This document shows positions 2,904 through 47,373 of a stretch of 64,000 bases of DNA, piece after piece. Source of the DNA: a virus (taxonomy: Duplodnaviria > Heunggongvirae > Uroviricota > Caudoviricetes); the IMG/VR virus record IMGVR_UViG_2711768037_000005, positions 1-64,000 of that record; one strand, written 5' to 3'. The notes under the pieces were generated by a model that saw nothing but the letters and a program-made list of their open reading frames with translations, did not search any database and was not told the DNA's origin. The position numbers and the translations under genes were made by a program. Position 1 is the first letter of the stretch, and each line of letters begins with the position of its first letter.

Positions 2904-3050
2904 TTAACAGCCATTGATTCTCGCCTAAAAATTCTAAGGCAGCACCAACCATTTAACCTTTACACAGCAGCCGTAGGCATTTAGGCTATATCACATATAA
3001 GAAAACAAGTTGTTTCAGACAATAATAATAGACGCAAAGGGAACTCTCCA

Positions 3051-4267: not shown

Positions 4268-5017
4268 GTGAGCCACATGAGCCAAATCTTTTTCGATACC
4301 ATCGACAACGACCAGTACGACTTCATGACAGAGTGGAATACCGCTGTTATGGACAAGTGGGTCGCTGAAAACATTGGTTTGTCGCGCTGTAAAGACGAGG
4401 CTGAACTCTTCGAGACGAAGTGGTTTGATTACCGCGACATGCATCCTCTGATGGCCACCTGTCTTTTTACGGAGGCATACAAACGTCAGTACTCAAATAT
4501 CATGCTGACGCACGGTCGTGAACACTTTGAAACAGCTCCGTTCACCACCGGGTTAAAACGCCTGCCTTATCAGGAGTTGTCGACTGCTAATAAAACGTCG
4601 CTATGGAAAGCACGCCAGTTTGCGGATCGCTATTGCTGCTCATACGACTACTTTATCTCCACCGTTCTTTCCGCAGCTGCACGACGGCTGTGGGACAAGC
4701 TGCCGCGCCCACAGCATTTATGGCAGCCAGAGCTGGTTGAGATATTCGAAGAGAAATTAGCCAGACGCGCAACAACACGTCTAGATGATTCTCTGATTAG
4801 CTTTAAGCATATGGGAGACATGCAGTTCAACCCGATTCAGGAAAGCTATTTTGAGTGGATTCTGGAGCGTTTGCGCACTATCCCTCGCAGCAAGCGCATA
4901 CGCGCAATTTTCTCCGCTATCTGGTTAATGGAAATCGTTCCAGAACGCCTTATTTCCGCCCACTTTCCAGAAGAACTGGAAGAAGCACGGCGGTTTATTG
5001 ATCCCCTATCTAATTAA
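4268..5017 (+). CDS. hypothetical protein (position suggests a helicase-associated factor)
   Basis: ORF track; immediately upstream of the helicase gene. Confidence 0.45.
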   Translation: MSHMSQIFFDTIDNDQYDFMTEWNTAVMDKWVAENIGLSRCKDEAELFETKWFDYRDMHPLMATCLFTEAYKRQYSNIMLTHGREHFETAPFTTGLKRLPYQELSTANKTSLWKARQFADRYCCSYDYFISTVLSAAARRLWDKLPRPQHLWQPELVEIFEEKLARRATTRLDDSLISFKHMGDMQFNPIQESYFEWILERLRTIPRSKRIRAIFSAIWLMEIVPERLISAHFPEELEEARRFIDPLSN

Positions 5018-5060
5018 CTAATGCTAGAAAACAATTTGTTTAAAAAACAAAGGAAAGCAC

Positions 5061-7664: not shown

Positions 7665-7739
7665 CAAGCGCCGCCAAAATAAGTAGATGGTTACTTATCT
7701 TTCTGTAAGAATACTTTCATCTGTTAGCTAGGAGTTGGT

Positions 7740-11190: not shown

Positions 11191-11957
11191 AAACATATCG
11201 ATAAGTGTTTACTTACTTATCCTTTGTGTATAAGATGACTTTGTTTTCGTTGAGACGCGACTGTTTGAACTTAAATACAAGTGCAAACGAAGAAGTCTAT
11301 CTGGCAGTAGCCTAATAAGCCAAACACCAGCGAGGTCAGTTTCCAGCCTCGTTACCGAAATGGGACACACTGAGCGAGTGTGATTGCAGAACGCAGGAGG
11401 GAACATGAGTGTTCCCTCCGATGAAGTAACAAAATGGGCGGTCGGTATATTTTCAACTCCATATGACTCCCGGATTCTTAGCCACTGACCGCCCATTCTG
11501 TTACGTCATTTTGTTCAATTATGTCGTTTATACTGGGTTAAAAAGCGGCGACGTAGCCCGGCTGGTATGGTTAGCCAGCACACAACGTTGAGGCCATTAC
11601 ATTTTTATCAATTCTAAGGTTCTATTCACAGAGATACCGGCGAGCGTTGATATGTAACATGTTGGGCAAACATTTAATCGGAGTAGTGGCCTCAACATTG
11701 TGAAGACGGGATTGTTGTGTAGGTTTAACCACTGTTGCCTGTTTTCACAACAAATGATTCCATACATCACATTGTATAAATTACAAAGTAGGTGCTGTCC
11801 TCAGAAACATCATCTACTTAAAGATTTAGCCTTCTATTGAGCGAAGTCGAAAGCGTCTGGCACTAACGAAAAGTGCAAGTAGCGGTGCGTTTCCTGGCAG
11901 AAACTAACACCGCCGCGATTAGCACTGTTGAGTAATAAATACTGTCAGTGCTGAATT

Positions 11958-14960: not shown

Positions 14961-15130
14961 ACATCGAATCAAATATTTAAAACTAGCTCTACAGAAAAAA
15001 ATGATTCCATACTCCTTAGGTATGGAATCATTTCCCGCATGAAAGATTTTAGCTTGATTCCAAAAGAATCAATGCCTAATATACTGGTTACTTATACAGG
15101 TAATCAGCGTAACTAGGTGAATACCAATAA

Positions 15131-16234
15131 ATGAAAAATAGCTTTGACAGAGCACGCGCAGCAGAAAACACCTCAAAAGAGGCAATTGAGTATCTCGAAA
15201 GAGCATCTCAAATGCAGGCCATTATGATCTCACAGATCAACAATAACATGATATTCTCGGACGCATTCATGTTATTCACTCGCTTATCTCTGCTGATAAC
15301 AAGACGTCGCCCAGAGATCGCTGTTCACTGTATTTTGATACATGTTTTACCGCACATTGCCGATATAAAAGTAAGTGACATTAATCGGTTCATGGTGAAC
15401 CAACTGGTAAACCCGTTAATACTGGATGGCAAAATTGTCATGGGCCGCCGCGTTTTCTCTCTGATGAAGCAGTTCCTTAGCTGGTGCGCCTTCCAGGGGA
15501 TGATAGACGTGTCACCGTTAAACGATATGTCACTAAACAAAGTTGCCGGTGGCGCAAAGCCCACACCTCGCGAGCGTAAGCTGACCGACGCAGAGGTATG
15601 GGTGTTCTGGAATATATGGGACTACTTCAATGTGTGCGCTGGTACAAAATGGGCGGCTAGGCTGTGTCTTGTATCAGCAAGACGACCTGACGAAGTACTG
15701 CGGGCTAAAAAAAGTGAGTTCAATCTTAAGCGTGGGGTTTGGAATCAAGGCAAGAGAAACAAGTCAGCACGTGAGCATTCGCTGCCTTTAAGCACATTAA
15801 TGCGCACATGCATTGAAGAGTTGTTCGAATACGGTAAAGACAGCCAGTGGCTCGTGCCTTCAAATAAAAAAATCGGGAAAGACCTTCCTATGTCTAAAGT
15901 GGCAATAGCACAGGCATTACGTCGTATTCTTGAACGGCCAGAACTGATGGAGCTTGAGCCATTTACACCCCGAGATTTGCGCCGTACTGCGCGTAGTTAC
16001 TTCCCAGCATTAGGCATAAGCCAGGAGGTATCACGCAAAATCATGAACCACAGTCTTGAGGGGATAGATCGGGTCTACGACCGGCACGATTATATGGACG
16101 AGATGCGAGACGCCTTAGAAAGTTTCTCGACGTACATCGCATCAATCGTAGAGCAACCGGATTTAGACGAAATTGACCACAAATTCAAGGGAGATCGTCT
16201 ATCAACAGAGCTTATTCGTGTAAATTTTTCATAG
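15131..16234 (+). CDS. tyrosine site-specific recombinase (integrase or dimer-resolution recombinase)
   Basis: C-terminal catalytic pattern: ARRPDEV (Arg), HSLEG (His), LRRTARS (Arg), YDRHDY (Tyr). Confidence 0.75.
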   Translation: MKNSFDRARAAENTSKEAIEYLERASQMQAIMISQINNNMIFSDAFMLFTRLSLLITRRRPEIAVHCILIHVLPHIADIKVSDINRFMVNQLVNPLILDGKIVMGRRVFSLMKQFLSWCAFQGMIDVSPLNDMSLNKVAGGAKPTPRERKLTDAEVWVFWNIWDYFNVCAGTKWAARLCLVSARRPDEVLRAKKSEFNLKRGVWNQGKRNKSAREHSLPLSTLMRTCIEELFEYGKDSQWLVPSNKKIGKDLPMSKVAIAQALRRILERPELMELEPFTPRDLRRTARSYFPALGISQEVSRKIMNHSLEGIDRVYDRHDYMDEMRDALESFSTYIASIVEQPDLDEIDHKFKGDRLSTELIRVNFS

Positions 16235-16615
16235 AGACTTTATGGCCTCAACAACCTTTTGTGATGCGCCTTTCTCTTTACCGAATCGCTCGTTATATGC
16301 AGCAAGAACCTGTTTTTCGTCCTCGTTAAGAGGAGCGGTGCCTTCTTTGTATAAAAATGCTGCGAGTTCAGGTTGGCGTTCTTCCAGCACCATCATCATA
16401 AGACGACTTGGCTCAATACCCAGCGCCAACGCCAGCGGACGAACCTTATCGATAGGCAAAGGAATTTTGCCACTTTTAATTAAAGAAAGGTTGTTGGCAT
16501 TTTTATAACCAATAAGTCTGGCTATTTGGGCCTGACTCATAGGCGAGGATTCAATCAGCCCTGCGATAAAAGCAGCATAGCGACTTTCTATAAATTCAAT
16601 GTTGTTGTCAGACAT
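16229..16615 (-). CDS. XRE-family helix-turn-helix transcriptional regulator
   Basis: HTH segment SQAQIARLIGYKNANNLSLIKSGK; only sizeable minus-strand gene besides rep; palindrome GGTAAGTGCTTACC about 30 bp upstream of its start. Confidence 0.65.
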   Translation of the reverse strand: MSDNNIEFIESRYAAFIAGLIESSPMSQAQIARLIGYKNANNLSLIKSGKIPLPIDKVRPLALALGIEPSRLMMMVLEERQPELAAFLYKEGTAPLNEDEKQVLAAYNERFGKEKGASQKVVEAIKSL

Positions 16616-16644
16616 TATTGCGACCTTTGCGCGTTAAACTCTCT

Positions 16645-16658
16645 GGTAAGTGCTTACC
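16645..16658. promoter_or_regulatory. candidate operator palindrome GGTAAGTGCTTACC in the divergent control region
   Basis: Perfect 6-2-6 inverted repeat; same core GTAAGTGCTTA recurs at 40641-40651 and, reverse-complemented, at 28410-28420. Confidence 0.4.
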
Positions 16659-16862
16659 GATATTACATCAAAGGTTAGGGTTGTAAAGATATAATCATTT
16701 TTTCTATAGGCACAAATATTAACCAATCAGCATTCATTAATGGAGAAAAACGACTAATAACATGTAACAAAACCAACTCAGATATGATATAGATAAGTTC
16801 AATTATGATATAAGATTTAATAGTACTCCCTACCATACTTTAAGTTAGAATGGATTGATTGA

Positions 16863-17075
16863 ATGAAAACAACTATTTCCAGCCTAATCACTCTTGAGAT
16901 CGGACACGTTGAAAAATTAGCTGATGAATGTGTAGCTGACATTCTCACCGAATTACCAAATGAGCAGATTCAGGTTGGTATGCATGACGCAACAGCCTTT
17001 ATATTCCTACTTAATAACAAACGCTTCACGCTTATCAATACCGGCTCTGGCTCTTTAGCCGTCAGAATCTGTTAA
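16863..17075 (+). CDS. hypothetical small protein
   Basis: ORF track; AT-rich surroundings. Confidence 0.25.
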   Translation: MKTTISSLITLEIGHVEKLADECVADILTELPNEQIQVGMHDATAFIFLLNNKRFTLINTGSGSLAVRIC

Positions 17076-17174
17076 CCCCCTCTGCTCCCTGCGCGAATGG
17101 CTTAGTCCCCTGTTCGCGCAGCGCTACATTAAACACACTAGTAAATAATTTGTTTTCACAACAAAGGATTAACC

Positions 17175-19283: not shown

Positions 19284-19378
19284 ATAAAACAGCCTTAACG
19301 ATAAGTAACTACTTACGATAGCTAATGGTATATTTATATAAGAAGTTGAACGCTCATTAGAGAACAAAGGAAAAACGC

Positions 19379-24870: not shown

Positions 24871-24987
24871 TTTTTGATAGATAATAAGTAAGTACTGATC
24901 TATCATTTAACAACTCAAAAGAGCCACGAATGAACGAAAGCCCAACGCGCATAGCGCCATCGGCCAAATCACAACAAGGAGAAACAC

Positions 24988-26016
24988 ATGTCTAAGACAT
25001 TACTTGATTTGCTTAACAAAACTCGTGAAGACATTGCCGCCAAACGTGGTAACAACGTTGATCTGACTCGTTTAAAAGATGGCGTCAACTATATCCGTAT
25101 CTTCCCGAATAAAGACGACCCAAACGGTAAGTTCTTCCAGACTTTCGGTATGCACTACGTTAAGTATCAGAACGAGGAAGGTAAAGAAGCAACCAACGCT
25201 TATATTTGTGAGCAACATACTCACGGTCGCGCTTGTCAGCTATGCGAAATGGTGATGGAAGGTCGCGCTCGTCACAAGGGTAACAAAGCAATGGAAGAAC
25301 GCATCGGTCAAATGCGTGCCACTCCTCGCTACCTGGTCAACGGCATTCTTTCTGCTCGTGAGGATTTCGCAGATGCTGAGAAATGCCAGTTAATCGAGCT
25401 GCCGTCTACTGTATTCGATGATATCTGCAAAGCAATCACCGAAGACATCGCTGATGATATCGGCAATCCACTGAGCAAAGAGGAAGGCTACGCATTCCTG
25501 ATTAAACGTACTGGCTCTGGTCGCGATACCAAATATGACGTCTCGCCTAAGCGTAAAGTCTACAAAGGCGATATCGAAGATAAATTCTGGAACACCCAGC
25601 ATGATCTGATCGCATACGCAAATCAGGCTGATGAAACTCGTCTTCTGTCGACAGTTCGCACTATGGGTCGTCTGATTGGCATCGCTGCACCAACTGCCGC
25701 AGCATCTGCACCAGCAATTTCCTCAACCGCGAAAACATCGGCCGCGGCACTGCCTGGATTTGGCTCTGTCACTGGTCATACGGAGGGTGCGACTGCTGTA
25801 GCTACCGCTCACACCCCAGCTTCTGAACCAACCAGTCTGGTTGATGAAGAAATCCTCCGTGCCGTTGAAACTGAATTTAAACCAGAAGCAAGTTCCGCTG
25901 CCGTTGCAGTATCAGTCAAAGAGTCTGAAGCAGTCGCAGCGACATCTGTAGCAGCCGCATCTGCGACGGAAGATGAAGGTCTGGATGACCTACTGAGAGA
26001 GCTGGACTCTCTGTAA
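24988..26016 (+). CDS. single-stranded DNA-binding protein, T4 gp32-like (putative)
   Basis: IRIFPNKDDPNG resembles gp32 IRFLPSKNDE; Cys/His cluster CEQHTHGRACQLC; Ala/Ser-rich linker and acidic C-terminal tail. Confidence 0.5.
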   Translation: MSKTLLDLLNKTREDIAAKRGNNVDLTRLKDGVNYIRIFPNKDDPNGKFFQTFGMHYVKYQNEEGKEATNAYICEQHTHGRACQLCEMVMEGRARHKGNKAMEERIGQMRATPRYLVNGILSAREDFADAEKCQLIELPSTVFDDICKAITEDIADDIGNPLSKEEGYAFLIKRTGSGRDTKYDVSPKRKVYKGDIEDKFWNTQHDLIAYANQADETRLLSTVRTMGRLIGIAAPTAAASAPAISSTAKTSAAALPGFGSVTGHTEGATAVATAHTPASEPTSLVDEEILRAVETEFKPEASSAAVAVSVKESEAVAATSVAAASATEDEGLDDLLRELDSL

Positions 26017-28393: not shown

Positions 28394-28455
28394 TCTCTTG
28401 AAAATATATAAGCACTTACTTATTATTTTCGCATAACAACCACATAGGAAAACAC

Positions 28456-29534: not shown

Positions 29535-29585
29535 CTCGTTATTATCACACACAAGAAAACAATTTGTTAAAAGGTTAAGTTAATT

Positions 29586-32427: not shown

Positions 32428-32642
32428 GTTTACAGTAAAATTTATATAAGTTAGTATCTACCTATCATGAAGATTTTTATTGAATACTTGTTGCTCATCG
32501 TATCAATAGCTTTTGTCATCGACTGCATTTTCACTGGTGTCATTCGTAAAGTCTTTTCCCCGGTGAACGACGTAGTCATAAACGCTTTGGCTATCGTGCT
32601 CGTATTTAATTCAGCATTTGATGTAATCAAAGAGGTGGCAGC

Positions 32643-40628: not shown

Positions 40629-40701
40629 TTTCATTGATAGGTAAGTGCTTATCTATTAACATGGGCCACTATATTTAGTGGCCCTCTTTATTTGGTGATA
40701 C

Positions 40702-43017
40702 ATGATAAGCATCGTAAAACGTAACGGCCAAACAGAGCCGTTATCCGAAGAAAAATACAACCGCGTCGTAATGTATGGCGTAGAAGGCATTCGTGGCGTA
40801 AGCGCATCCGCTGTAGCAATGGGAGCTGCGACCAGCATTTTTGATGGGATGACCACCAGCCAGTTGCATGAGGCTTTGGTTAAATCTGCCGCTGATTTGA
40901 TCTCACCAGAAGCACCAAATTACTCACAGGTGGCTGCCTGCCTGAACATTTTTAAAATCCGCAAAGATGCCTTCGGTCGTTACGACTATCCGAACTTCTA
41001 CCAACACATTGTCAAGAACGTTAACAAGGGCGTTTATGACAAGGATTTGCTGACACATTATTCGTTTGAAGAGATCGAAGAACTCGGCAATTACATTAAG
41101 CCGAAACGTGACGATCTTTTTGGCTATGCAGCTACGGTGCAGTTGCAAAGCAAATACCTCGTTCAAAACCGTGTTACAGGTGAGATTCATGAGGGGCCGC
41201 AACATATCTATATGCTGGTAGGCATGTGTCTGTTCCAGAATTGGGAAGACGACTGCGCTGGCAAAACACGTATGGAGATGGTCAAAGGTTTCTATGACGT
41301 TACAAGTACGTTCAAACTGTCTCTGCCTACACCAATCATGGCCGGCGTCCGTACTCCAACCCGTCAGTTCTCCAGTTGTGTGCTGATTGAGTCTGGCGAT
41401 AGTCTGAAAGGGATTAGTGCAGCTTCAGCCGCAATTATCGACTACGTTTCACGTCGTGCTGGAATTGGTATTGGTTTTGGCCGTATCCGTGCGCTGGGCA
41501 GCGAGATCCGCAATGGTGAAGCCACCCATACCGGAGTTATTCCATTCCTGAAGCATTTCCAGACGGCTGTTAAATCTTGTTCGCAAGGTGGTGTTCGTGG
41601 TGGCGCAGCAACAGCGTTTTACCCGATCTGGCATCTTGAAGTTGAAAGTCTGCTGGTGGTGAAAAATAACCGTGGTATTGATGAAAACCGCGTTCGCCAT
41701 CTTGATTACGGCGTCATGAGTAACCGTCTAATGTACCGTCGACTCGTCAGAAGCGAGAACATCACTCTGTTCAGCCCGCATGATGTGCCTGATATGTACG
41801 AAGCCTTCTTCACAGACCAGGATCTGTTTGAAAAGCTGTACCATAAATACGAAGCCGATGATTCAATTCGCAAGAAGTCAGTACCTGCCATTGAGCTGTT
41901 CTCATCTCTGATGCAGGAACGAGCGTCCACGGGCCGAATTTATATTGCGAACGTCGATCATATTAATGAGCATGGCGCTTTCATTCCTGCTCTTGCACCT
42001 GTCCGCCAGTCAAACCTGTGCATGGAGATCACTCTACCCACTCGTCCACTGGCATTTACCGACGACCCGAACGGTGAGATCGCGCTATGCACTTTATCCG
42101 CTTTTAACCTCGGAGCCATCCGTTCACTGGAGTCTCTTAAAGAGGTGGCGTTCTATGCCGTTGCTGCACTGGATTCGTTACTGGATTATCAAGACTATCC
42201 GATGGAGGCAGCCGAAGTGCCTGCCAAAGCTCGTCGTAGCTTGGGAATTGGTGTAACCAACTTTGCTTATTACCTGGCAAAGAATGGCGTTCGTTATTCT
42301 GATACCGCTGGCAATAAACTGGTGCATGAAACGTTCGAAGCTATCCAGTATTACCTTCTTGACGCCAGCTGCCGACTTGCCGAAGCAAAAGGTGAGTGTG
42401 ACTGGTTTGAGCAGACCAAGTACGCAATTGGTCAGTTGCCGATCGACCATTACCGTTCTTCATTAGACGAAAGTGGCGAAACCAACTTTGAGTTAAAGAT
42501 GCCGTGGGAAGAACTGCGTGAACGTATTGCAAAATACGGCCTTCGCAACTCCACACTGACGGCACAAATGCCATGCGAGACTTCCAGCCAGATCACTAAT
42601 TCCACCAACGGCATCGAACCGCCTCGTGGCCCGGTGTCAGTGAAATCTTCTAAGGACGGCATCGTCAAGATGGTCGTGCCTGAGTTTGAAAAACTGAAGG
42701 AACAGTATGAATACCTGTGGGATATGCCGGACAACCGCGGCTATCTGACAAAGGTGGCGATCATCCAGAAGTTCTTTGACCAGGCTATTTCAGCCAATAC
42801 CAACTATGACCCTTCTCGCTTTGAAGGCGATAAAGTCCCAATGATGACGCTACTGTCAGATTTGCTTCTCGCCTACAAGATGGGAGTTAAAACGCTTTAC
42901 TACCACAACACCAGAGATGGGGCAGGAAAGCGTGATGACGACGAACCGCAGAATCCACTGACGCAAGCTGTAGCCGTCGAGCCAGAAGATGAGTGCGACG
43001 GGGCCTGCAAAATCTGA
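40702..43017 (+). CDS. nrdA: ribonucleotide reductase class Ia alpha subunit
   Basis: Near-colinear with E. coli NrdA by eye (e.g. LVQNRVTGEI, QFSSCVLIE, GGVRGGAATAFYPIWHLEVESLL, C-terminal CxxxxACKI tail); 771 aa. Confidence 0.9.
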   Translation: MISIVKRNGQTEPLSEEKYNRVVMYGVEGIRGVSASAVAMGAATSIFDGMTTSQLHEALVKSAADLISPEAPNYSQVAACLNIFKIRKDAFGRYDYPNFYQHIVKNVNKGVYDKDLLTHYSFEEIEELGNYIKPKRDDLFGYAATVQLQSKYLVQNRVTGEIHEGPQHIYMLVGMCLFQNWEDDCAGKTRMEMVKGFYDVTSTFKLSLPTPIMAGVRTPTRQFSSCVLIESGDSLKGISAASAAIIDYVSRRAGIGIGFGRIRALGSEIRNGEATHTGVIPFLKHFQTAVKSCSQGGVRGGAATAFYPIWHLEVESLLVVKNNRGIDENRVRHLDYGVMSNRLMYRRLVRSENITLFSPHDVPDMYEAFFTDQDLFEKLYHKYEADDSIRKKSVPAIELFSSLMQERASTGRIYIANVDHINEHGAFIPALAPVRQSNLCMEITLPTRPLAFTDDPNGEIALCTLSAFNLGAIRSLESLKEVAFYAVAALDSLLDYQDYPMEAAEVPAKARRSLGIGVTNFAYYLAKNGVRYSDTAGNKLVHETFEAIQYYLLDASCRLAEAKGECDWFEQTKYAIGQLPIDHYRSSLDESGETNFELKMPWEELRERIAKYGLRNSTLTAQMPCETSSQITNSTNGIEPPRGPVSVKSSKDGIVKMVVPEFEKLKEQYEYLWDMPDNRGYLTKVAIIQKFFDQAISANTNYDPSRFEGDKVPMMTLLSDLLLAYKMGVKTLYYHNTRDGAGKRDDDEPQNPLTQAVAVEPEDECDGACKI

Positions 43018-43122
43018 CATATGGTGGGGTATAACCCCACCTTCTCTTTGATTTGTAAGCCTTGTTTAAACAAATAAGATAACAACTTGTTTAAACACAT
43101 CAAAAAGCAAAAGGAAAAACAC

Positions 43123-45221: not shown

Positions 45222-45354
45222 TTATCTATTAGTGTATATTTGATTTGCGTATAAAACTCTGGAACGACTATTCTTTTTGGTGGCCTATGGCCACCATTTT
45301 TTTTATCTATCTGGCCTTGTTCCCTCAATAAATGTAAACTCACGCAATGAATAA

Positions 45355-46485
45355 GTGGTTACTTATCTTTGTGAGGTTTTTGTGTCACTCCTTTTGAATC
45401 GTGAGCATACGAACGGTCAGGTAACAAACGCATCGTATGCAAAAGTTATTGAGACGGTGCTTAAAAGCGGCGTGCAGGCTGATGATCGCACAGGCACTGG
45501 TACTTTAAGCACCTGCTACGTTCCCTCTTACTACATGCTTACTGGTGGGACTGTGCCGCTTATTTCTGGAAAGGCGGTAAATCTTAAGCCACTGCTTGTC
45601 GAACTTGAGTGGTATCTGAAAGGCACGGGCAACATCCAATTTCTCAAGGATAACGGCGTTAAGATTTGGGATGCATGGGCCGATGAGAATGGCGATTTGG
45701 GGCCGGTTTACGGTAAGCAGTGGCGTCGATGGGAAGATACCCGCATCGTGAGCCATAGTGAATATCTGAGCAAGATCGCTACTTTCCGTGAACGCGGGTA
45801 CAAAGTCGAGGGATACCTGGGTATCAGTGAAGATCGCGTAGTGCTGTCCCGTGAAATCGATCAGCTACAGCGTATTGTCGATACACTGCGCACGAACCCT
45901 ACCGATCGTCGCATCATGCTTAACGCATGGAACGTAGGCGAGCTTGAGGATATGAAACTGCCACCTTGCCACTTTGTCTTCTCTTTGTGGAGTCGTGAGC
46001 TGGATTTTGAAACCCGTTTAACGATGGCAACTGACATTGGTCTTCAACACAGTCGCCTCGGTTACGAGTCTATCTACACCAAGATGCTATACGATCTGGA
46101 GATGGACGGCAGTGTTACTGAAGCTGAACTGGATGAACTTGGAATCCCCAAACGCATCCTCAACTCCTGCCTCGTACAGCGTAGCGTAGACACTTTTGTT
46201 GGTATGCCATTCAATATTGCTGGCTATGGCATTCTCACTCATTTTCTCGCGAAGATTACGGGTCACATGGCCGGTGCATTTGTGCATTTTGGCTTTGACG
46301 TGCATTTGTACAACAACCACATGGAAGGTGTGTGTGAGCTAATGAAACGACAGGCTCCAGAGCATTCAGATCCGGTCGTTATTTTCCCTCATGAATGGTC
46401 AGAGTTGGATGATTTCAAATGGGACGAGGTTTTAATTCTTGGCTATGACCCTCTACCGTGGATCAAGGTTCCAGTGGCGGTGTGA
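45355..46485 (+). CDS. thyA: thymidylate synthase (ThyA family) carrying two internal insertions
   Basis: DRTGTGT, WDAWADENGDLGPVYGKQWRRW, RRIMLNAWNVGEL, catalytic LPPCH, C-terminal GYDPLPWIKVPVAV all align with E. coli ThyA; about 30 and 50 extra residues at two sites; start codon ambiguous (GTG 45355 or 45382). Confidence 0.85.
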   Translation: MVTYLCEVFVSLLLNREHTNGQVTNASYAKVIETVLKSGVQADDRTGTGTLSTCYVPSYYMLTGGTVPLISGKAVNLKPLLVELEWYLKGTGNIQFLKDNGVKIWDAWADENGDLGPVYGKQWRRWEDTRIVSHSEYLSKIATFRERGYKVEGYLGISEDRVVLSREIDQLQRIVDTLRTNPTDRRIMLNAWNVGELEDMKLPPCHFVFSLWSRELDFETRLTMATDIGLQHSRLGYESIYTKMLYDLEMDGSVTEAELDELGIPKRILNSCLVQRSVDTFVGMPFNIAGYGILTHFLAKITGHMAGAFVHFGFDVHLYNNHMEGVCELMKRQAPEHSDPVVIFPHEWSELDDFKWDEVLILGYDPLPWIKVPVAV

Positions 46486-46486
46486 T

Positions 46487-46900
46487 ATGGCAAGAGGTAT
46501 GTATGTCTTATGCGAAATTGAAGGTGTGCTGGCAAATGCCAGCCATCGTAAATCAGTATCTGACGCGGATGCAGGCCAGCTCATTGCCGGTGATGAACTC
46601 ATTTTCCCCACCAGCCGTATGTTGCGTGGTTTTGCTCGCTCAGGGGCTGAAGTGGTGCTTATCAGTAGCCGCTCTGAAACTCTTGAAGCGCCAACTAAAC
46701 GATGGCTGAAAGATTTTGGCGTTGATTATGACTGGCTTCATCTCGTACCGAATGGCACCAGTTATGAGAAGCATATTAAGCGCACATTAGCGGAGCATAA
46801 AGGCGATCTGCTTATCGCTGCGCTGGTGCACGATCCTCGACTCCGTGCCGCTTTAGCCGACTCTCACCATCGACCGGTCATCTATGAGGTGAGCAAATGA
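46487..46900 (+). CDS. hypothetical protein
   Basis: In-frame ATG at 46487 just after thyA stop (ORF track 46439); translationally coupled to DHFR gene. Confidence 0.3.
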   Translation: MARGMYVLCEIEGVLANASHRKSVSDADAGQLIAGDELIFPTSRMLRGFARSGAEVVLISSRSETLEAPTKRWLKDFGVDYDWLHLVPNGTSYEKHIKRTLAEHKGDLLIAALVHDPRLRAALADSHHRPVIYEVSK

Positions 46901-47373
46901 AGATGATCGCTGCTGTTGGCCGTAACTATGAGATCGGCATAGCGAATGAACTCCCCTGGCGTTGTTCTACCGATCTGAAGCTATTTAAGAGACTCACCAA
47001 AAACGCCACTGTCGTTATGGGGCGTAAAACGATGGAAAGTCTCAAACGCCCTCTTCCAGAGCGTCATAACCTCGTTTTGACGCGCTCTCATGGCTTTGTA
47101 CCAAATGGATTCTACCCTGCTGGTGTGGATGATGTGTTGCGATTACCAGAGCCTGTGTGGGTGATTGGCGGGGAACAAATTTACTCGCTATTCATGCCGC
47201 ATGTTGAAGAGATTTGGCTCTCCCACATCGGCGTTGATGTACCAAACGCCGATGCATTCTTCCCGGCAAGCATGATGCGTAACTTAGGCTTTGTGCCTGT
47301 TGAAACAGCTTATACCCAACGAGCCAGCGAGGAAGAGCCTGGCTTTTCGCAGATCGTATACAGAAGGTCGTAA
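46897..47373 (+). CDS. dihydrofolate reductase
   Basis: MIAAVGRNYEIGIANELPW and VVMGRKTMESLKRPLPER match the DHFR N-terminal fold; 158 aa; adjacent to thyA. Confidence 0.8.
   Translation: MKMIAAVGRNYEIGIANELPWRCSTDLKLFKRLTKNATVVMGRKTMESLKRPLPERHNLVLTRSHGFVPNGFYPAGVDDVLRLPEPVWVIGGEQIYSLFMPHVEEIWLSHIGVDVPNADAFFPASMMRNLGFVPVETAYTQRASEEEPGFSQIVYRRS

Follow-up and report, generated by a model that had tools for sequence, protein, structure and literature searches.

The window, that is the whole stretch of 64,000 nucleotides of viral DNA analysed here (positions 1 to 64,000 of the IMG/VR record IMGVR_UViG_2711768037_000005, Caudoviricetes), carries on its minus strand a small gene for a predicted helix-turn-helix (HTH) protein, and the present analysis concerns this candidate repressor together with a family of palindromes that are dispersed throughout the window and of which one member lies directly in front of the gene. 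A segment of 6 kb around the HTH gene is 99.9% identical to the Escherichia coli plasmid pOkiPb01698_2 (NZ_AP042587.1) and 96-98% identical to the Escherichia phages CMS-2020a, PhiR41_1 and Cyrano (pLF82), with the Salmonella phage SSU5 matching more distantly. Because of these near-identical plasmid and phage matches, and since all of the E. coli matches to the locus (269/269) reside on plasmids, the window can be assigned to an SSU5-like phage-plasmid of about 108 kb, of which it represents 64 kb comprising the partition, replication, DNA-metabolism and early regions, while the structural genes are mostly located beyond it. The locus itself is organised as follows, with the open reading frame abbreviated as ORF and amino acids as aa.

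15131-16234, plus strand: tyrosine recombinase gene (int; Pfam Phage_integrase), convergent with the HTH gene with an overlap of 6 nt
16229-16615, minus strand: HTH gene, candidate lysogeny repressor; ORF with ATG start, 128 aa, XRE-fold, orthologue of Cyrano CYRAN_45
16624-16628, minus strand: Shine-Dalgarno sequence AAAGG of the HTH gene, as read from the sequence
16645-16658, no strand: operator-like palindrome GGTAAGTGCTTACC (22-mer 16641-16662, 16.2 bits)
16660-16665, minus strand: -10 element TAATAT of the HTH promoter (promoter scan), invariant in all relatives aligned
16682-16687, minus strand: -35 element TTTACA of the HTH promoter (promoter scan), 16-nt spacer to the -10 element, kept in the aligned relatives
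16785-16814, plus strand: candidate early promoter in rightward direction (TGATAT, 18 nt, TG-a-TATAAG), which forms the second block conserved in the divergent alignment
16818-16834, no strand: putative degenerate half-motif directly after the candidate rightward -10 element, below the matrix threshold (in relatives AATAGGTAGTAGTATT)
16863-17075, plus strand: conserved 70-aa ORF, first gene of the rightward transcript (phrog_2627, E 3e-39; 49% identity in Klebsiella)
17089-17121, plus strand: 9-bp inverted repeat CTGCGCGAA/TTCGCGCAG (loop of 15 nt) in the gap from the 70-aa ORF to CobT, as found in the sequence

That a divergently transcribed gene for an XRE-type HTH protein lies at this position had been proposed from the sequence alone and is borne out by the ORF, by the match of its product to PHROG 8 'transcriptional regulator' (E 8e-12), by an AlphaFold2 model and by structural superpositions; the homologues are annotated by NCBI as 'XRE family transcriptional regulator'. 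In the model, which was built from 16 homologues and has a mean predicted local distance difference test (pLDDT) score of 74.7, residues 12-80 reach pLDDT values of 85-89 and fold into five helices (12-23, 28-34, 41-47, 55-65 and 69-80) as in a five-helix HTH bundle, and both the model and the superpositions place the helix-turn-helix at helices 2-3, as expected for the XRE bundle. With Foldseek, the N-terminal domain superposes on C.AhdI (1.5 A over 62 residues), P22 c2 (1.6 A over 61) and the 434 repressor (1.9 A over 61); SinR, HigA and Stl are aligned as well, and C.AhdI, P22 c2, 434 and SinR superpose at 1.5-1.9 A over 61-63 residues. Beyond the bundle, about 45 helical residues are modelled as three less confident helices, and as the C-terminal part is helical in the model and no Peptidase_S24 match was found in the 128-aa protein with Pfam, it falls outside the class of LexA/lambda CI-type repressors that cleave themselves by a Ser-Lys dyad. 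By the model, then, this is a 128-aa protein with a predicted XRE/Cro-C1-type HTH domain and without a self-cleavage domain.

Almost all of the 55 homologues of the protein reside on contigs that measure about 100-116 kb, the genera represented being Escherichia, Salmonella, Cronobacter, Citrobacter, Enterobacter, Klebsiella and Raoultella, and the stretch best conserved amongst the homologues is the nearly invariant recognition-helix region IGYKNxNNLSLIKSGKIPLP. The orthologue in phage Cyrano, CYRAN_45, is 97.7% identical and is termed a 'putative repressor', a role which it holds by annotation only although it is the reference master repressor there; the same publication gives no operator, promoter, motif family or comparative evidence for this gene (PMC9928086).

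The palindrome GGTAAGTGCTTACC is located 29 nt upstream of the ATG of the HTH gene, begins 1 nt past the -10 element and spans roughly positions -5 to +9. In an alignment of the upstream regions of 19 relatives with HTH proteins of 59-99% identity, a block of about 50 bp is conserved, consisting of CTTTACAA followed by TGTAATAT-C-[G/A][G/A]TAAG[C/T]ACTTACC, and the sequence on either side of it diverges. This block is shared by the E. coli, Salmonella-type and Klebsiella elements even where the HTH proteins are only 59-70% identical. As judged from the sequence, such a footprint, with a palindrome at the predicted transcription start of the gene's own promoter, corresponds to the classical layout of an autoregulated repressor.

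Opposite the HTH gene, an AT-rich control region of 550 bp had been postulated. Its AT-richness is evident in the true intergenic DNA, which extends from 16616 to 16862 and has a GC content of 0.29-0.33, but the remainder of the postulated region is occupied by the 70-aa ORF at 16863-17075. In rightward direction the order is thus candidate promoter (where relatives carry TGATACAAT), half-motif, 70-aa ORF, inverted repeat and CobT. In macrophages, expression of CYRAN_46, the orthologue of the 70-aa ORF, rises from a log2 value of 4.3 to 10.8, that is about 90-fold, while CobT stays low with an about 6-fold increase (PMC9928086). The 70-aa ORF is therefore the first candidate for a switch partner and may be Cro-like or anti-repressor-like. 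The inverted repeat at 17089-17121 has no T-run, is kept in Klebsiella pJN2-26, SSU5 and pNT1F34-108k, and may be an attenuator, a roadblock or a binding site; the unequal induction of the 70-aa ORF and CobT would fit an attenuator or a roadblock. On the other side of the HTH gene, the recombinase gene adjoins it in every lineage and belongs to the module that is deleted in SSU5 (see below).

The dispersed palindrome family

With up to two mismatches allowed, copies of GGTAAGTGCTTACC give rise to 6 strand hits in the window against 0.26 expected, and those at 40640, 50187 and 57373, which are near-perfect, can be extended to a palindrome of 20-22 bp, ATAGGTAAnnnnTTACCTAT; the consensus of the family (14-22 bp) is GATAGGTAAGTACTTACCTATC. 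Using a symmetric 22-mer weight matrix derived from sites in three genomes and a threshold of at least 10 bits, 17 sites are found in the window including the one at the HTH promoter, so that the assignment of the upstream palindrome to a dispersed family is confirmed and the family itself turns out to be about four times larger than four near-perfect copies. The other 16 sites, identified with the matrix and given without strand, are:

68-81: 12.2 bits
4248-4261: 12.9 bits, in front of a gene whose start is at 4268
7682-7695: 13.3 bits, followed by tgTAAGAAT
11200-11213: 17.6 bits, then tgTATAAGAT; precedes the tRNA cluster
19304-19317: 10.2 bits, between CobT and CobS
24887-24900: 22.9 bits, in front of a gene whose start is at 24988
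28407-28420: 22.9 bits, in the 17-nt spacer of TTGAAA...TATTAT, just past an intrinsic terminator
32449-32462: 14.6 bits
35956-35969: 23.3 bits, TATATT 7 nt downstream
40640-40653: 30.0 bits, upstream of nrdA, terminator hairpin 40663-40684 after it
45350-45363: 13.8 bits
50187-50200: 27.8 bits, upstream of the adenine methyltransferase gene and downstream of a terminator
50848-50861: 10.3 bits, weak
51226-51239: 12.6 bits
52401-52414: 16.9 bits
57373-57386: 29.0 bits, followed by tgTAAGAAT

At the level of whole genomes, the matrix detects 25 sites in the E. coli plasmid, and 30 and 31, respectively, in SSU5 and Klebsiella pneumoniae pJN2-26, as opposed to 0.2-1.2 in shuffles of these three (0.2 for E. 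coli), and a more distant plasmid from K. oxytoca, whose HTH protein is 44% identical, has 30 sites. With a coding fraction of 0.88, 15-17 of the 17 window sites are located outside ORFs (binomial P 1.5e-12). Of the host transcription factors considered (TyrR, LacI-family, MqsA and others), none is known to have a recognition site that fits the motif.

Where a sigma70-like -10 element is recognisable, the sites overlap the core promoter at variable positions between about -35 and +2 (+2, -18, -29 to -35). They begin one base past the -10 element at two promoters, that of the HTH gene and that of the methyltransferase gene (TTGCCA-17-AAAAAT, site 50187), site 28407 lies within the 17-nt spacer between TTGAAA and TATTAT after a terminator, and the sites at 57373, 35956, 11200 and 7682 are centred near -30 ahead of TGnTAAGAAT or TATAAGAT. 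The site at 40640 is centred near -35 ahead of a -10-like TATATT in the loop of the terminator hairpin upstream of nrdA, a layout which is kept in four lineages. Since their placement varies within the footprint of RNA polymerase, the sites are read as operators and not as activator sites of fixed geometry. A late- or middle-promoter element of the latter kind, such as P1 Lpa or the T4 MotA box, was also considered but is not supported, as -10-like hexamers occur at varying distances from the sites and ribosome-binding sites directly adjoin some of them.

Sites are also found in late operons. In SSU5 and Klebsiella they are located at the terminase/portal junction, behind the capsid gene and in front of the holin gene, and in the E. 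coli plasmid there are two, at 88137 and 90098 in coordinates of the rotated plasmid.

In co-directional operons many sites stop 15-20 nt short of a start codon, and it might therefore be supposed that they function as RNA hairpins with a stem of 7-9 bp and a loop of 4 nt, serving as translational operators, processing sites or mRNA stabilisers. However, the mismatches in the arms show no strand bias, 54 being G-U-compatible on the sense and 48 on the antisense strand and 71 being non-pairing, and the palindromes are therefore taken to act as DNA. In addition, it is the sequence, beyond mere pairing, that is conserved across sites and genera, and the predicted transcription start of the HTH gene falls into the left arm of its palindrome so that no hairpin could form in that mRNA. 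The hairpin reading, which was dropped on account of the missing strand bias, is thus extremely improbable.

A second, different palindrome, (TAAGA)AAACAAnTTGTTT, is likewise dispersed in the window (3003-3015, 5029-5041, 29558-29568, 43081-43091, 53296-53308 and 54025-54037), the complete E. coli plasmid containing 8 copies and the relative from K. oxytoca 13. In front of parA, the DnaB-like helicase gene, nrdB and others it precedes the conserved ribosome-binding context AAGGAAAACACATG by 10-25 nt, and a degenerate copy resides at about 17141-17160 upstream of CobT, where the palindrome is also found in SSU5. This distribution suggests a second regulator or a shared promoter or leader element.

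Of further note is a strongly stereotyped translation-initiation context, (A)GGAAAACAC-ATG, which is common to many genes of the element and its relatives and is represented in the window by 9 copies of GAAAACACATG, e.g., near 28455, 53325, 54050 and 57425. The intrinsic terminator upstream of nrdA (40663-40692; GGGCCACT-atattt-AGTGGCCC plus T-run) lies only about 18 nt before the gene, and SSU5, K. pneumoniae and K. oxytoca all retain the TATATT of its loop; with a promoter inside this terminator, upstream transcripts could stop here and new ones begin. The nucleotide-metabolism block of thymidylate synthase, dfr and nrd genes includes a dihydrofolate reductase gene (46897-47373) which on a near-identical plasmid bears the NCBI name 'trimethoprim-resistant DfrA51' and which, by this location, is not part of a resistance cassette.

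Candidate binders of the palindromes

The HTH protein is probably the lysogeny (plasmid-state) repressor of the SSU5-like phage-plasmid and would act through these palindromes. The support for this is indirect and consists of the conserved promoter/operator footprint, expression in the lysogen, the status as a core gene, the deletion in SSU5 and the co-occurrence of gene and motif across lineages. In this respect, the candidacy as master repressor put forward in the sequence-only reading is strengthened; because of the conserved small ORF in the control region and the second palindrome family upstream of CobT, however, a single regulator is probably too simple a picture.

With respect to expression, a published transcriptome of the Cyrano lysogen in strain LF82, grown overnight in lysogeny broth (LB), reports 95.8 normalised reads for CYRAN_45 compared to a median of 9.8, i.e., about 10 times the background, so that in this orthologue the gene is expressed in the lysogen as a master repressor should be (PMC9928086, supplementary file 2). 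In the same data set the integrase has 49.5, the 70-aa ORF 20, CobT 7.8, CobS 6.7 and DnaE 10, the two ParB_N proteins have 5.0 and 9.5 and the FljA-like regulator 18, and ParA and its 117-aa partner are expressed (PMC9928086). Amongst the candidate DNA-binding proteins, the HTH protein is accordingly the sole one that is clearly expressed while the genes behind the motif sites are silent.

With respect to distribution, the numbers of PLSDB records with the HTH gene and with the CobS backbone, which about 830 records carry, are almost the same in each genus (Klebsiella 348/346, Escherichia 230/227, Enterobacter 92/92, Yersinia 63/63, Salmonella 49/49, Citrobacter 25/25), and the HTH gene can therefore be regarded as a core gene of the plasmid-state elements. 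The HTH gene, the palindrome family and the ParB_N genes are all present in the phage-plasmids of E. coli, K. pneumoniae and K. oxytoca. They are also present in the Acinetobacter baumannii element CP137931, where the HTH protein is 46% identical over the aligned 73%, the gene order is HTH gene, about 600 bp, small ORF, CobT and CobS, and the palindrome is altered to the variant CAGTCAGTACTGACTG (e.g., at record positions 2440, 10144, 16364, 31169, 82986 and 83439), with 11 copies of AGTCAG-TA-CTGACT and 9-12 of CAGTCA-N4-TGACTG. The change from GTAAGTACTTAC to GTCAGTACTGAC amounts to one base per half-site and is mirrored, which is what would be expected from the sequences if a dimeric binder had shifted its specificity. 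Conversely, both the HTH gene and the palindrome family are absent from Pseudomonas phage nickie and Stenotrophomonas phage ANB28, which retain ParB_N and are at the same CobS distance (37-38% identity); they also lack the recombinase gene, and the neighbouring gene directly precedes CobT. In these two genomes a detector requiring exact arms revealed no over-represented palindrome, the maximum count of 2 being equal to that in shuffles. Given four positive lineages against these two negatives, the motif family tracks the HTH module and neither ParB_N nor the lytic backbone.

The sequence-only reading had described the HTH gene as the only regulatory-looking gene on the minus strand, which is correct within the window but not for the rest of the element, where a FljA-like regulator and two ParB_N proteins are encoded. 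The two adjacent proteins, with a ParB_N domain only, are located beside the terminase operon, and the FljA-like protein (Flag1_repress, PF03614, E 1e-68) is conserved in the enterobacterial members (NZ_AP042587 60914-62262 and 66062-66583, beyond the window).

The HTH protein might instead be only a local autoregulator of the switch region of int, the 70-aa ORF and CobT-CobS, with a different protein binding the approximately 25 palindromes as well as the HTH promoter. In favour of this scenario, the site at the HTH promoter is a weaker member of the family without the flanks, the element encodes other candidates for DNA binding (the FljA-like PF03614 protein, two ParB_N proteins and a 71-aa 'putative regulator'), and the second palindrome family AAACAAnTTGTTT implies more than one regulator on these promoters. 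However, all motif-bearing lineages have in common only the HTH protein, the two ParB_N proteins, ParA and CobS, and of the candidate DNA-binding proteins of the E. coli element the A. baumannii element shares the HTH protein and the two ParB_N proteins but neither the FljA-like nor the small candidate proteins. The ParB_N genes in turn are silent in the lysogen and yet are present in the motif-less nickie and ANB28, so that amongst the candidates compared across lineages only the HTH protein tracks the motif, and a purely local role appears unlikely. The FljA-like regulator was rejected as the binder on the grounds that it is missing from the motif-bearing A. baumannii element and is barely expressed in the lysogen.

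A phage-plasmid with palindromes of 14-22 bp scattered round its genome is also reminiscent of dispersed centromeres or KorB-like sites (cf. N15 sopC and RK2 KorB), which in this case would be bound by the two ParB_N proteins, and the ParB_N operon of SSU5, Klebsiella and A. baumannii indeed has a weak site at its start. Yet these genes reside in a late operon beside the terminase genes and are at background level in the lysogen, where ParA and its 117-aa partner are expressed, and their products have the ParB_N domain only and are kept in the palindrome-less nickie and ANB28. Expression and phyletic pattern thus led us to discard a centromere of the ParB/KorB or N15-sopC type, which is highly improbable.

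In SSU5 the ParB_N proteins are present, but no homologue of the HTH protein is encoded. Compared to the E. coli plasmid pNT1F34-108k it lacks exactly 2,966 bp, bounded by the 10-bp direct repeat CCGTCCG(A/C)AC (at about 42633-42643 in SSU5, NC_018843; repeats at L076 3227-3236 and 6203-6212), and the lost segment held a gene without known function, int, the HTH gene and the divergent control region as well as almost the entire 70-aa ORF. As the sequences flanking the deletion are 93-99% identical to those of plasmids bearing the module (93% on both sides for pNT1F34-108k, and 99.4% for the left flank in Enterobacter plasmids), SSU5 is best regarded as a recent deletion derivative, and because of this recency its approximately 30 retained sites are uninformative as to the binder. 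The argument that the HTH protein cannot bind the motif, since SSU5 keeps the motifs without the gene, was consequently dropped once the deletion had been mapped and the flanks compared. The lifestyle of SSU5 fits the loss of a repressor.

The retention of all sites in SSU5 without the HTH gene could also be taken to indicate that the palindromes are sites of the lytic cycle, used by a phage activator or a sigma-appropriating factor that would define phage promoters and shut off the HTH promoter in lytic growth. The sites within late operons of SSU5 and Klebsiella would agree with this, as would a subset of sites that are centred near -30 and followed after 6-13 nt by an extended -10-like TGnTAAGAAT or TATAAGAT without a -35 element. 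However, besides the fact that a recent deletion deprives site retention of its meaning, the spacing to the -10 element is not fixed, -10-like hexamers occurring 18 times downstream and 13 times upstream at offsets of 6-13, and several sites end 15-19 nt before the start codon, so that a downstream promoter would cut off the ribosome-binding site. Furthermore, the motif is absent from the lytic relatives nickie and ANB28, which have the same backbone. A lytic function of the sites is therefore considered very unlikely.

Maintenance and induction of the plasmid state

If the HTH protein is the plasmid-state repressor, a dimer would bind the palindrome at its own promoter and limit its own synthesis, and by occupying the other palindromes the repressor would silence early and middle operons; in close relatives it might also mark or block late operons. 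SOS induction would presumably be indirect, via an anti-repressor or partner protein. Such an indirect route is the likeliest because the protein has no S24 domain and a LexA box is missing from the switch as well as from every predicted operator. DNA damage or mitomycin C induces elements of this type, some of which carry resistance genes (PMC9600943), and Cyrano is induced 39-fold by ciprofloxacin (PMC9928086). No exact CTGT-N8-ACAG LexA box was found in the window, and direct SOS control at the switch was rejected, as the only strong box of the element precedes humD, which lies beyond the window. A degenerate LexA-like box, TACTGGTTACTTATACAGGT (15082-15101, CTG-N10-CAG with 6 mismatches to the consensus), is located about 30 nt upstream of the start of the recombinase gene, and in Cyrano the recombinase is about 26-fold up in macrophages, alongside the LexA-controlled humD (PMC9928086).

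Several observations weigh against the assignment of the HTH protein as the repressor acting through the palindromes. At the level of the protein, the Pfam matches are below threshold (HTH_19 with 18.9 bits at a cut-off of 30.2, and HTH_37 with 16.5 at a cut-off of 27), a search of PDB sequences yielded no match, and the Foldseek E-values are weak (0.01-0.1). At the level of the DNA, the site at its own promoter is without the ATA/TAT flanks on one of its sides and reaches no more than about 16 bits, and near many sites, in particular the late-operon sites of SSU5 and Klebsiella, a promoter cannot be recognised. The comparison with SSU5 is affected by the fact that the deletion also removes the recombinase and the 70-aa ORF, and that the description of this phage as virulent is a second-hand label (PMC5427195). 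The phyletic argument includes only two negative cases, and the exact-arm detector used for these is insensitive to degenerate motifs and barely sees the E. coli family. The identity of the motif across the E. coli, Salmonella and Klebsiella groups would mean that all of them are homoimmune if the protein is the immunity determinant. Finally, in the literature searched no regulator is described for the SSU5-like group.

A wider claim can be made tentatively, namely that the phage-plasmids of the SSU5 supergroup, comprising hundreds of clinical plasmids of Enterobacteriaceae and Acinetobacter including those of the Yersinia pestis pMT1 and Salmonella Typhi pHCM2 type, might be kept dormant by one 128-aa XRE repressor via a stoperator-like network of about 25 palindromes reaching into the late operons, that its specificity might have been switched symmetrically in Acinetobacter (GTAAG to GTCAG), and that loss of the 3-kb int-repressor module through a deletion at 10-bp microhomologies might be enough to give rise to a virulent phage such as SSU5.

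SSU5-like phage-plasmids rank among the commonest phage-plasmids of E. coli, Klebsiella, Enterobacter and Salmonella and are of clinical relevance, and with a defined repressor gene, a mapped promoter/operator and a genome-wide list of sites at hand the switch would become directly testable. If true, the proposed repression would explain the lytic behaviour of SSU5 and would bear on its proposed use in biocontrol, since its module-bearing relatives are temperate; it would also offer a route to cure or induce these plasmids. A review from 2024 gives no lysis-lysogeny regulator for the group, and the literature searched was found to describe neither the promoter nor the operator nor the motif network, so that the regulon is useful and apparently undescribed.

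Comparison with known repressor systems

The sequence-only reading had likened the element to P1 and its C1 repressor, and as a functional analogy this is apt: P1 is also a phage-plasmid in which a single repressor gene serves many operators, spread over about 100 kb at promoters for replication, DNA metabolism and other lytic functions, with one operator at its own promoter. With respect to the molecules involved, the comparison does not hold. P1 C1 has 283 aa, is unrelated to XRE HTH proteins and recognises asymmetric operators of 17 bp, and immunity in P1 also requires Coi, Lxc and c4/ant, whereas the protein described here has a predicted XRE fold of 128 aa, its putative sites are symmetric palindromes, and accessory genes of the P1 type were not identified in the element.

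Because sites are also found inside the late operons of close relatives, the stoperators of gp71 of the mycobacteriophage L5 are an equally good analogy. In both cases there are more than 20 copies of a short site (25-31 per genome in the elements analysed here) which are located in short intergenic gaps, occur in early and in late operons, the latter without an evident promoter, and include one copy at the early or repressor promoter. In L5 the sites are 13-mers without symmetry whose orientation with respect to transcription is strict; the palindromes described here are symmetric and have no orientation bias, and the host phylum as well as the protein family are different.

The lambdoid repressors, including those of 434 and P22 (c2), resemble the system in their HTH fold, in palindromic operators of 14-18 bp with conserved outer half-sites and in the divergent orientation of the repressor gene and the early lytic operon. 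In contrast to these, the protein has no S24 domain and there is no tandem array of OR1-3, but one strong site at its own promoter and putative operators distributed genome-wide. Over the full length, the best Foldseek matches are N-terminal fragments of Stl from staphylococcal pathogenicity islands (SaPI), with about 125 aligned columns and a TM-score of about 0.45, and Stl is likewise a small HTH repressor without a cleavage domain, which is relieved by a partner protein. The similarity is nevertheless weak, with a root mean square deviation above 8 A and 12-14% identity. An XRE repressor acting on palindromic operators is therefore an ordinary kind of system, and what is new in the present case is the scale of the network of sites and the comparative evidence for it.

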